Shown here one piece after another: positions 17,502 through 19,008 of a stretch of 32,000 bases of DNA. The stretch is from positions 1 to 32,000 of the forward strand of contig NZ_CP104094.1 in the NCBI RefSeq assembly GCF_033372575.1. The letters are read 5' to 3'. The notes beneath the pieces are model-generated. The model saw nothing but the letters and a program-made list of their open reading frames with translations, ran no database searches and was not told where the DNA came from. Position numbers and translations under genes: made by a program. The stretch is from Candidatus Saccharimonadota bacterium (lineage in GTDB: Bacteria > Bacteroidota > Bacteroidia > Flavobacteriales > Blattabacteriaceae). Positions within the stretch are counted from its first letter, which is position 1; each line of letters opens with the position of its first letter.

Positions 17502-19008
17502 AAATAGAAGAATTAATAAAAAATATAAATAAAAAAAAAAGAAAAAAATTATTAAAAATATTAATAAAAAAAAAAAAAAAAAAAAAAAAAAAATAAAAAA
17601 ATTAAAAAATAAAAAAAATAAAAAAATAAAAAAAAAAAAAAAAAAAAAAAAAAAAAAAAAAAAAAAAAAAAAAAAAAAAAAAAAAATAAAAAAAAAAAAA
17701 AAAAAAAAAAAAAAAAATAAAAAAAAAAAAAAAAAAAAAAAAAAAAAAAAAAAAAAAAAAAAAAAAAAAAAAAAAAAAAAAAAAAAAAAAAAAAAAAAAA
17801 AAAAAAAAAAAAAAAAAAAATTATTAAAAAAATTAAAAAAAAAAAAAAATAATATAAAGGATAAATATAAATATTCAAAAATTAAAAATATTATAAAATT
17901 AAATAAAATATATAATAATAAAAATAATAAATATAATAAAAATGAAAAAAAATATAAATTAAATATAAAATATAATAATGATATAAATATTACATATAAA
18001 AATGGGAAATTAACAAATATAATAATTAAAAAAAATATAAAAAAATTAATAAAAATTAAAAAAATATTAATAAAAAAAATAATTAATAAATATTTAAAAT
18101 ATTTTAGATTTTATAATTATTATTCTTTAATTAATATATTATACTTATCAAATAAAAAAAAATATATTTATTTAATAGATATAAAAAACATTTTAATAAT
18201 AGATTTAAAAATATATTATATATATTTAAAAAATTATAAATATAAAGAAATAATAAATGATAATGTATTTATAAAAGTAAAAAATAAAATTAATATTATA
18301 GAGGAATATATAATTAATAATAATAAAAAAAAAATAATTAATAATTCAATAATTAATATATTATTAAAAAAAAACAGTGAAGTAAATTATTATAAATATA
18401 ATAATAAAACATTATATATAAATAATATTAACAATATCTATATATATCAAGATTATAAAAGTAAATTAATATTATATAATATAGATTATAATAATAGATT
18501 AACTTTAAATGATATAAATATAAAATATATAAATAATAAATGTTATACTAGAGTATATAATATAATAATATTAAGCAAAAATCAAATATTAGAAAATTAT
18601 ATAAATATAAAAAATAATTATAATTATTGTAATAATAAATTATATTATATAGGAGTTTATAATTATAATTCATATTGTGTAATAAATGGAAATATAAATA
18701 TAAAAAATAAAACTAAAAATAATATATCATTACAAAATTATAAAAATTTTATTTTATCTAATAAAGTATTTTTATTTGCTAAACCAGAATTAAATATTAA
18801 TTCTAATAAAGTAATATGTTCACATGGATTTACATTAGGAAAAATAGATAAAAATATAATTTATTATTTATTAACTAGAGGATTAAAATTAAAAAAATGT
18901 AAAATAATATTTTATTTATCAAATATTTATAAATATTTAATTTTAAAAAATAAATATTTAAATAATATAAAAAATAATATTATTAAAAAATTATATACAA
19001 TTATTTAA
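17498..19008 (+). pseudogene. sufD: sufD (Fe-S assembly protein SufD), frame-disrupted as sequenced: the ATG is in one frame and the conserved body is in the -1 frame, separated by a giant poly(A) tract
   Basis: ATG at 17498 overlaps the sufC stop (ATGA). That frame stops at 17603-17605. The adjacent frame is open from 17533 to the TAA at 19006-19008 (492 codons) but has no ATG/GTG/TTG. Its C-terminus (AKPELNINSNKVICSHGFTLGKIDKNIIYYLLTRGL) matches the SufD motif KPQLEI..DDVKCSHGAT.G.ID..QLFYL.SRGI. It sits between sufC and sufS. Confidence 0.65.
17566..17820. repeat. Giant poly(A) tract: 247 A + 8 T, with runs A29, A59, A30 and A102
   Basis: Counted directly: A29 at 17566-17594, A59 at 17628-17686, A30 at 17688-17717, A102 at 17719-17820. 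No G/C at all from 17542 to 17858. Confidence 0.95.

Follow-up and report, generated by a model that had tools for sequence, protein, structure and literature searches.

The suf operon of Candidatus Shikimatogenerans bostrichidophilus, a beetle symbiont of the Bacteroidota with a ~157-kb genome of ~16% GC, contains an A-rich tract within the 5' part of sufD whose longest uninterrupted run is 102 nt. Judging from comparison with related strains, the tract is probably (with a rough probability of 0.6) a real, lineage-specific expansion by slippage of a short A-run of lysine codons. It was found in the 32,000-nt stretch of DNA analyzed here (the window), where all other genes are intact ORFs with an ATG start, so that the sufD defect is isolated. 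The relevant features, numbered from the first letter of the window, are as follows.

16779-17501, + strand: sufC, a 240-aa ORF with 100% identity to the NCBI SufC WP_318165783.1 (Ca. Shikimatogenerans bostrichidophilus).
17498-17566, + strand: start codon and codons 1-23 of sufD (MKIEELIKNINKKKRKKLLKILI), in the phase of 17498.
17533-19008, + strand: open frame of the SufD body, in the phase of 17500; 491 codons plus stop, the poly-Lys tract included.
17542-17858, + strand: maximal G/C-free tract, 317 nt (292 A, 25 T).
17566-17593, + strand: A28 run, the site where the frame must change.
17594-17627, + strand: T-interrupted block, T A7 TT A6 T A8 T A7 T, translated in the SufD frame as I-KK-L-K-N-KK-N-KK-I.
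17628-17820, + strand: A59, T, A30, T, A102, which reads K19 I K9 N K34 in the SufD frame; the single runs are A59 at 17628-17686, A30 at 17688-17717, and A102 at 17719-17820.
17821-17849, + strand: TTATT A7 TT A15, a segment of the right flank.
18334-19008, + strand: truncated SufD call present only in RefSeq, WP_420095090.1, 224 aa with an ATA start.
19010-20233, + strand: sufS, the next gene of the suf operon, a 407-aa ORF whose orthologues at the sister loci carry Aminotran_5.

The sequences flanking the tract are GAAGAATTAATAAAAAATATAAAT on the left and GGATAAATATAAATATTCAAAAATT on the right. A count of the letters bore out the first-pass annotation of this DNA, which had described 317 nt free of G and C and, within them, 247 A and 8 T at 17566-17820. 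Its run lengths of A59, A30, and A102 also stood, but its A29 is in fact A28, the first T being at 17594 rather than 17595. That annotation had put the other A runs at about 10-15 nt, and the next homopolymer in the window after the runs of the tract is indeed A15; the second-longest G/C-free tract is 128 nt. With A at 49%, the longest run expected is ~14, and the probability of A102 arising by chance is ~1e-27. The DMIN1 tracts described below excepted, runs longer than 19 nt were absent from ~90 kb of orthologous and neighboring sequence of five other strains.

The tract had correctly been placed inside the suf operon, but its description as lying ~65 nt after the sufC stop, with the implication of non-coding DNA, is misleading, as the tract lies in the sufD reading frame. 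The TGA stop of sufC (17499-17501) and the sufD ATG at 17498 overlap (ATGA), and the tract begins 68 nt after that ATG, inside sufD and not in an intergenic region. Also missed in the first pass were the different frames of the two flanks and the truncation of sufD in the databases. The GenBank record of the submitter holds no SufD protein and RefSeq only the 224-aa fragment, whose start falls 19 codons within the Pfam core-domain match.

As assembled, codons 1-23 and the SufD body differ in phase by one base, and the frame opened by the ATG terminates at a TAA at 17594-17596. The body frame, from 17533 to 19008, contains no ATG, GTG, TTG, or CTG codon. Read as AAA codons, the tract shares the frame of the body that follows it and is one base off from codons 1-23, with the caveat that the run lengths are unreliable. 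Addition of a single A to A28 yields an uninterrupted SufD of 503 aa, and removal of two yields one of 502 aa. In the 503-aa protein the insert of 95 codons comprises 84 Lys, 4 Leu, 4 Asn, and 3 Ile, and it lies (~270 nt) between residue ~23 and a conserved NIKDKYKYSK segment.

Past the tract, where the SufD sequence is only ~8% GC, the SufD frame is free of stops over 382 codons, whereas the remaining two frames contain 66 and 81 stops, about one every five codons. Pfam SUFBD_core was matched at residues 249-456 (E=5e-36), and the E. coli SufD structures 2zu0 and 1vh4 matched with E=1.4e-11. Reading the frames with genetic code 4 (TGA=Trp) left the picture unchanged. An AlphaFold2 model of the post-tract SufD, built with 6 sequences, was poor (mean pLDDT 51.8) and placed β-strands upstream of the RefSeq start. 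Within the tract itself, the nine possible sites for a TAA are distributed 6, 3, and 0 over the three phases, the SufD frame being the one without any. This bias is modest as a test (P=(2/3)^9=0.026, and 0.007 by letter shuffling; P≈0.03), and the avoidance of stops by the T interruptions in the SufD frame suggests that selection acted once growth of the tract had begun.

Alignment of the sufC-sufD junction with relatives, proposed in the first pass as a check, revealed that the gene is collinear with the sister sufD genes on either side of the tract, without loss or rearrangement, and that the sisters carry only short A-runs. These comparisons were anchored pairwise alignments, as the low complexity of the region defeated automatic MAFFT and repeat-finding. 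Codons 1-23 are conserved across all three sisters and are homologous to the SufD N-termini MKIKKIINNINKKKRKKILKLLIKKKKNIKD (L081) and MKLNKLIKNINKKKRIKILKLL (L082), and the post-tract sequence NNIKDKYKYSKIKNIIKLNK matches the sister sequence NIKDKYKYSKIKNIIKFNK. At the site of the tract, CP104096 carries A14, in frame, CP104095 carries the short, interrupted run A4CA10TA4TA4, and the distant strains encode K3-K4; the frameshift is therefore not kept across strains. The long tract is absent from this site in six Shikimatogenerans strains, namely the sisters CP104096 and CP104095 together with CP099824, CP099827, CP099825, and CP099822. A runaway expansion of an A/Lys-codon tract, one of three possibilities raised in the first pass, is the best fit to the ancestral Lys-codon A-run (A14 in CP104096), the collinear flanks, and the open SufD frame.

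Replication slippage would be the most likely origin of such an expansion, with a small tandem duplication perhaps as its seed. The only duplicated flank at the tract is a short and diverged direct repeat of the left flank. The segment at 17821-17849 looks like a diverged second copy of that flank (A7 TTATT A5 TATTAATA A-run), a call that comes from aligning the two flanks and L081 pairwise in sequence of low complexity, and it is likely the orthologue of the TTATTAATT-A14 segment of CP104096. The tract would have no function of its own, being instead a tolerated degenerative feature of an obligate beetle symbiont. Its tolerance may be ascribed to the site, a variable Lys-rich segment, and to the blurring of the frame by long A runs in transcription and translation.

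It is rather unlikely that the tract as a whole is an artefact of assembly, in which a short or moderate A-run was replaced or inflated to ~290 nt by the joining or polishing of low-complexity ends or reads. Artefact does very probably apply to the exact run lengths, which, and hence the frameshift, are untrustworthy. Runs of 59-102 nt exceed reliable short-read resolution, and a run of 102 nt is beyond reliable sizing by any short-read method. Most genomes of the genus were obtained by Illumina sequencing and SPAdes assembly, with re-assembly in Geneious (PMC10284843). For an A18/A19 run of another strain, the NCBI and Logan assemblies of the same reads differ by one base, and the Logan contig terminates 11 nt past the run. 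In the sister genomes the longest A run is A14 across 20 kb. The DMIN1 assembly contains a questionable duplication of 2,868 bp by which rpmG is truncated, probably a misassembly, and its junction coincides exactly with T78 and A48 runs at ~31,296-31,421 of CP099824.1; homopolymers can thus accompany assembly problems in this genus.

Against an artefact stand the collinear, unrearranged flanks, which set the site apart from the DMIN1 junction, and the stop-avoiding T interruptions. In addition, the block at 17594-17627 and the sequence at 17821-17834 are of normal complexity and have no counterpart in the sister strains, and over-extension would not invent them. Entry into a poly(A) path would itself require reads with long poly(A), and, by our own reasoning, A102 corresponds to neither k nor k+1 for the usual SPAdes k values. 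Neither an independent assembly of the window strain nor a contig derived from its reads turned up in a contig index, on exact SufC look-up, or among Logan assemblies, only NCBI and UniRef being listed as sources of its proteins, and a scan of JGI metagenome contigs for both tract flanks returned no match.

With a real expansion, sufD is probably still expressed. Translation would proceed from the ATG overlapping the sufC stop, through the tract as poly-lysine, and into the conserved body. The one-base difference in phase could be an error of the assembly in homopolymer length, or it could be real and offset by slippage of the RNA polymerase or sliding of the ribosome, processes to be expected on A runs of 28-102 nt.

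Alternatively, the tract could be real and sufD a young pseudogene, with the expansion and frameshift too recent for further decay to have accumulated. The frameshift as assembled and the lack of ATG, GTG, or TTG in the body frame are in keeping with this idea, as is an independent nonsense TAA at codon 36 of the CP104095 gene. Furthermore, sufD has the highest dN/dS, that is the weakest constraint, among 12 genes compared, and gene content erodes differently among the sister genomes. We nonetheless find a pseudogene unlikely given the 382 stop-free codons in such AT-rich sequence, the stop avoidance inside the tract, and a dN/dS below 1. The latter is 0.35-0.44 in all three sister pairs, the window branch being no higher than that between the other two sisters, and 0.45-0.56 for the part of sufD upstream of the RefSeq start. 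With this weakest constraint and the nonsense codon in CP104095, sufD may be in decay, at its 5' end or throughout.

Codons 1-23 might instead be decoupled from the body, which would then be made by termination-reinitiation or by internal non-AUG initiation with the A-rich tract as an unstructured leader. A candidate ATA start at 17593-17595 overlaps the TAA at 17594-17596, RefSeq itself resorts to an ATA start, and CP104095 shows a comparable split of codons 1-35 from an intact, Met-free body; Bacteroidia initiate without a Shine-Dalgarno sequence and prefer unstructured, A-rich upstream regions (PMC6847099). However, the body has no canonical start codon, and all three sisters conserve codons 1-23. 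On the + strand, no match to the Bacteroidetes -7 promoter motif TANNTTTG occurs from 16122 to 20457, leaving an internal promoter unsupported, although across the window the motif shows no enrichment to begin with (53 matches versus 62 expected). Every step of this reading would be conjectural, and we hold it to be quite improbable.

Very improbable indeed is a functional element, be it an encoded poly(A) acting on the 3' end of the sufBC mRNA, as the first pass had speculated on the mistaken premise of an intergenic site close behind sufC, or a phase-variable on/off switch of sufD like the 5' coding homopolymers of contingency loci: the tract lies 68 nt into sufD, in an ORF with SufD homology on either side of it and not in a 3' UTR; it is missing in both sisters and four more distant strains; and an Rfam scan returned only tRNAs, with no match in the tract. 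The contingency loci of pathogens likewise have their frame set by a homopolymer prone to slippage close to the 5' end of the ORF, but these tracts, typically shorter than 20 nt, belong to surface or restriction-modification genes and persist because switching is selected for. In contrast, sufD is a housekeeping Fe-S gene of a clonal, vertically inherited symbiont, which is not the class of gene that switches in this way, and its sister strains lack the tract.

Expansion by slippage has closer counterparts in other insect endosymbionts. Tamas et al. reportedly described in 2008 frameshifts at poly(A) tracts in the genes of such organisms that are rescued by transcriptional slippage. For Buchnera and Blochmannia, two reports (PMC5009743; PMC3017870) give 12-50% frame-corrected transcripts as the result of poly(A) slippage. 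As in those genomes, a coding-strand A-run of at least 9 nt lies within a gene of an AT-rich obligate insect symbiont, the frame changes in the run, one small indel restores the ORF, and the remainder of the gene is intact and shows purifying selection. The known tracts are, however, of ~9-12 nt ("some tracts as long as 12 bp", PMC3017870) and often conserved between strains, whereas the sufD runs are of 28-102 nt, add 95 codons, and are private to one lineage.

Plasmodium provides a parallel for length, having very long A runs in ORFs, lysine runs of AAA codons, and an extremely AT-rich genome, with runs of 65 A in strain 3D7 and as many as 111-132 A in further strains or species (PMC7295572). 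Plasmodium, however, being a eukaryote, has ribosomes and surveillance pathways that cope with poly(A), and in-frame tracks occur in more than 60% of its genes (PMC7295572). In the bacterial case of sufD, only a single gene is affected in each genome sampled, and the tract is out of frame as assembled. Stalling and frameshifting of ribosomes on poly(A) have been reported (PMC4552401; PMC7295572), and 34 consecutive AAA codons strongly inhibit translation in E. coli and the other organisms tested, according to PMC7295572, which cites Koutmou 2015 and Arthur 2015; this inhibition counts against the reading favored here. Like the AAA runs of poly(A) translation attenuators (PMC4552401), which stall or frameshift ribosomes, the tract would lower sufD output and blur the frame; the tracks in the attenuator and ribosome-sliding studies are, however, ~12-36 A (PMC4552401; Koutmou 2015 via PMC7295572).

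A second tract, from a different deposit, lies in rpmG of strain DMIN1, at ~34,164-34,263 of CP099824.1. It consists of A10 T A41 T A47 (T47 and T41 runs), ~100 nt in all, and is coding, falling in a Lys-rich loop, with the N- and C-terminal parts of the protein in different frames; the L082 rpmG orthologue encodes a normal 60-aa L33. With sufD, this raises the possibility, which we consider doubtful but worth stating, that Shikimatogenerans carry and express conserved housekeeping genes with poly(A) of at least 100 nt, slippage and sliding nullifying the DNA frame. Past a few dozen A, the frame at the DNA level would become irrelevant, selection on tract length would be gone, and the run would expand unchecked. 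If so, this would be a bacterial counterpart of the poly(A) tolerance of Plasmodium and would imply altered ribosome or rescue behavior on poly-lysine.

A real tract would be ~10x the longest A-runs of endosymbionts, which are ~12 nt in Blochmannia in the one comparison paper (PMC3017870); we found no longer bacterial example, in a search that was not a systematic survey of bacterial genomes. It would extend the idea that polymerase infidelity rescues frameshifts from 10-nt to 100-nt runs, in a gene that still looks constrained, suggest a threshold above which tract length drifts freely, and predict a bacterial ribosome with Plasmodium-like tolerance of poly-lysine synthesis. Because the sufD annotations of this genome (224 aa) and of CP104095 (235 aa) are truncated and homopolymers coincide with at least one probable misassembly (DMIN1), comparisons of gene content among these genomes need care. 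On the minus strand of the window, a 105-aa ORF at 17561-17878 was rejected as spurious, being the poly-Phe mirror image of the tract.

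The SufC encoded in the window is 100% identical to WP_318165783.1/WOX79137.1 from Candidatus Shikimatogenerans bostrichidophilus (156,922-bp chromosome), a Bacteroidota endosymbiont of bostrichid beetles (PMC10284843). The genes near the tract are ordered metG, rsmA, sufB, sufC, 1.5 kb without a listed ORF, sufS, and rpmB on the minus strand, and all remaining genes of the window are intact ORFs with an ATG start. The ORF listing places the suf genes as follows:

15303-16706, sufB
16779-17501, sufC
19010-20233, sufS

A count over 17542-17858 confirmed the 317-nt tract, described in the first-pass annotation as free of G and C with very long A runs, and gave 292 A, 25 T, and zero G or C. 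The reported runs of 59, 30, and 102 nt were correct; the first run, given as 29 nt, is 28 nt long, with the first T at 17594 and not at 17595. The runs are:

17566-17593, A28
17628-17686, A59
17688-17717, A30
17719-17820, A102

After these four runs, the longest homopolymer of the 32-kb window is A15, and the second longest G/C-free tract measures 128 nt. At 49% A, the longest run expected is about 14 nt, and the chance probability of A102 is approximately 1e-27. The GC content, near 16% on average in the window, drops to 7.5% around the tract. On the minus strand, 17561-17878 holds a 105-aa ORF with a TTG start, composed nearly entirely of Phe; we rejected it as a gene, as it is the mirror image of the tract and a trap for gene callers.

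The tract is located inside sufD and is not intergenic. Three-frame translation of 17498-19015 revealed that the sufD ATG at 17498 overlaps the sufC TGA (ATGA) and opens MKIEELIKNINKKKRKKLLKILI, and that this frame enters the A28 run and ends at TAA 17594-17596. In the phase of 17500, a frame of 491 codons is open from 17533, spans the whole tract, and finishes in a clear SufD C-terminus (…ICSHGFTLGKIDKNIIYYLLTRGL…) with its stop at 19006-19008. The gene uses the phase of 17498 for its first 23 codons and that of 17500 from the first T (17594) on. Following the tract, this SufD frame has 0 stops in 382 codons, versus 66 and 81 in the other frames; Pfam SUFBD_core matches its residues 249-456 (E=5e-36), and it also matches the E. 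coli SufD structures 2zu0 and 1vh4 (E=1.4e-11). No ATG, GTG, TTG, or CTG codon occurs in the SufD frame across 17533-19008. For this reason the ORF listing has no entry for the SufD body, and the RefSeq SufD, WP_420095090.1, is only 224 aa, starting from an ATA at 18334 that cuts the SUFBD_core match 19 codons in. GenBank has no protein for it. Addition of one A to A28 gives a single 503-aa sufD ORF, and removal of two gives 502 aa. Of the 95 codons in the insert, 84 encode Lys, 4 Leu, 4 Asn, and 3 Ile. Every cluster of T in the tract provides exactly one potential TAA, and the nine such sites are split 6, 3, and 0 among the phases, with zero in the SufD frame (P=(2/3)^9=0.026; 0.007 by letter shuffle). 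This modest signal suggests selection for continued translation of the tract in the SufD frame as the T interruptions accumulated.

The nearest genomes are CP104096.1 (160,463 bp) and CP104095.1 (151,789 bp), with 88-94% nucleotide identity to the window in most neighboring genes and 75-85% in lon, ruvC, and rsmA. The sufC-sufD junction was aligned with relatives, as the first-pass annotation had proposed. CP104096 has an intact 405-aa sufD ORF, beginning MKIKKIINNINKKKRKKILKLLIKKKKNIKDKYKYSKIKNIIKFNK, and reads …TTATTAATT-A14-TATAAAAGATAAATAT… at the tract site, where CP104095 reads …AAAACA10TAAAATAAAAGAT…. The window flanks, MKIEELIKNINKKKRKKLLKILI and NNIKDKYKYSKIKNIIKLNK, align on either side of this short run, and more distant strains have a K2-K4 run preceding a common Y/W-K-x-S-K motif. 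Since the sisters carry only a short run between aligned flanks, the tract appears to be an expansion of approximately 270 nt in an ancestral Lys-codon A-run, private to the lineage of the window. Its 3' end (17821-17849, TTATT A7 TT A15) resembles the left flank (A7 TTATT A5 TATTAATA A-run) copied once more and since diverged. The expansion may therefore have been seeded by a small tandem duplication, a tentative reading in a sequence of such low complexity. Among 11 shared genes, no orthologous A-run is longer than 15 nt in any of the three sisters, and the longest run in 20-kb loci from three further strains is 19 nt.

The NG86 dN/dS of sufD was 0.44 for the window and CP104096, 0.35 for the window and CP104095, and 0.40 for CP104096 and CP104095. 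These values are the highest among the 12 genes compared (0.06-0.34 for the others), are below 1, and do not rise on the window branch; dN/dS was 0.45-0.56 upstream of the RefSeq start versus 0.27-0.37 in the downstream half. In CP104095, sufD (locus L082, 4719-5957) has a lone in-frame TAA at codon 36, which is TCA in relatives; the other 376 codons are open and lack Met, and the NCBI annotation holds only a 235-aa C-terminal fragment. The 5' end of sufD is thus disrupted in two of the three assemblies of the clade with the body open in both, which fits recent lesions, sequencing errors, or a dispensable N-terminus.

Among the readings offered by the first-pass annotation, we favor a real A/Lys-codon expansion, given the ancestral Lys-codon A-run at the site and the collinear flanks. 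Replication slippage would have lengthened this run in an AT-biased, bottlenecked symbiont of a genus in which some clades have lost mutL, and the insertion would have been tolerated because the site is a variable, Lys-rich N-terminal segment. Expression of sufD would continue from the ATG at 17498, with any real frame offset compensated by RNA-polymerase slippage, which in Buchnera and Blochmannia yields 12-50% corrected transcripts even at runs of ~10 nt (PMC5009743, PMC3017870). The sliding of ribosomes on poly(A) (PMC4552401; PMC7295572) may add to this compensation. Because the T-interrupted block is open in a single frame and every later T leaves two of the three open, most slipped transcripts would be unproductive and sufD output would be reduced. 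We put the probability of this full account, degenerative slippage expansion with sufD still expressed, at about 0.6.

The leading alternative is that the tract was substantially inflated or created outright by assembly, which we consider unlikely. For most genomes of the genus, Illumina reads went through SPAdes and the result was re-assembled in Geneious, and the genome of the window is absent from the table of the paper (PMC10284843). For run SRR19201388 of strain TIMP, the 5' end of sufD has A18 in the NCBI assembly (L085, 10748-10765) and A19 in the independent Logan assembly (L086, 3084-3102), whose contig stops 11 nt past the run. Even runs of 18 nt thus come out one base wrong and split short-read contigs. 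The run lengths as assembled, and with them the one-base offset between frames, are not reliable. Against pure artefact, the sister genes are collinear with both flanks and nothing is lost or rearranged; the tract holds blocks of normal complexity missing from the sisters; the T interruptions are biased in phase away from stops in the SufD frame; and an assembler enters a poly(A) path only if the reads hold long poly(A). Regardless of the state of sufD, a long tract totalling more than 100 nt is likely real. The NCBI records CP099822, CP099824, CP099825, and CP099827 are each exactly 100 bp larger than the sizes in Supplementary Table 2 (PMC10284843).

Strain DMIN1 (CP099824.1), a separate deposit, carries A10 T A41 T A47 (100 nt) in rpmG, encoding L33, at a Lys-rich loop, for which the normal 60-aa CP104095 orthologue has QKKNKLIKN. 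The N-terminal MAKSKNRKKIILECIEQ and C-terminal ISRYHTTKNIKNNKKKIRLKKYNYILRKRTIHEEK are in different frames. This is the anatomy of sufD in the window, and long coding poly(A) is therefore recurrent in the genus, or at least in its assemblies. DMIN1 also has a 2,868-bp tandem duplication of the sufC 3' end, sufD, sufS, a DUF4295-like ORF, and part of rpmG. The DMIN1 features are:

L083 16283-16453, minus strand, rpmG
L083 16305-16404, plus-strand coordinates, rpmG tract
L083 10676-16453, duplication region
L083 13437-13562 (L001 10813-10938), duplication junction

The junction consists of T78 followed by A48, exactly at the rpmG tract and the sufC A19 run. This signature of misassembly lends some weight to artefact in the window; the duplication is probably a misassembly through homopolymers, or else real and recent.

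Two further, less probable rivals, in both of which the long tract is real, are that sufD is a young pseudogene, and that a non-AUG codon serves for internal initiation or re-initiation, the A-rich tract acting as leader; initiation in Bacteroidia is SD-independent (PMC6847099). A functional poly(A) element following sufC finds no support, as the tract is within sufD, is not conserved, and matches no Rfam family.

The tract would work in the manner of the poly(A) frameshifts that Tamas et al. described in endosymbionts, but its runs are up to ten times longer, with a 95-codon insert and no counterpart in sister strains. Coding poly(A) tracks in Plasmodium are similar in length, reaching 65 A in 3D7 and, in other strains or species, 111-132 A (PMC7295572), but are eukaryotic, in frame, and genome-wide. 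To a specialist, a conserved bacterial ORF holding an A-run of ~100 nt, and a second such case in a sister genome, would be surprising; whether the run is real depends on the assembly.

Small ribosomal-protein genes also differ among the sisters. Between map and rpsG, rpsL (S12) is missing from the window (22026-22038) and CP104095 (L089, 15011-15016) and present in CP104096 (L088, 14738-15118) and more distant strains; tblastn found no S12 in the 32-kb window, and the gene may lie elsewhere in the genome. Following sufS, the window has only L28 (20233-20516), CP104095 only L33 (L082, 7180-7460), and CP104096 only a DUF4295-like 38-aa ORF (L081, 7140-7360). Between L2 and S3 (L088/L089, ~19400-20700), S19 was not called in CP104096, nor L22 in CP104095. 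The differences following sufS and between L2 and S3 suggest ongoing differential erosion or annotation gaps.

Both GC skew and AT skew switch sign at ~5700-7300 of the window, coinciding with a change of gene orientation. Cumulative GC skew is lowest near 6-7 kb, adjoining tufA. Three clustered tRNA genes (Gly, Tyr, Thr; 6934-7190) also adjoin this point, and tRNA-Trp (5581-5653) lies across tufA from them. This region is likely the replication origin; sufD would then be on the leading strand at a distance of ~10 kb.
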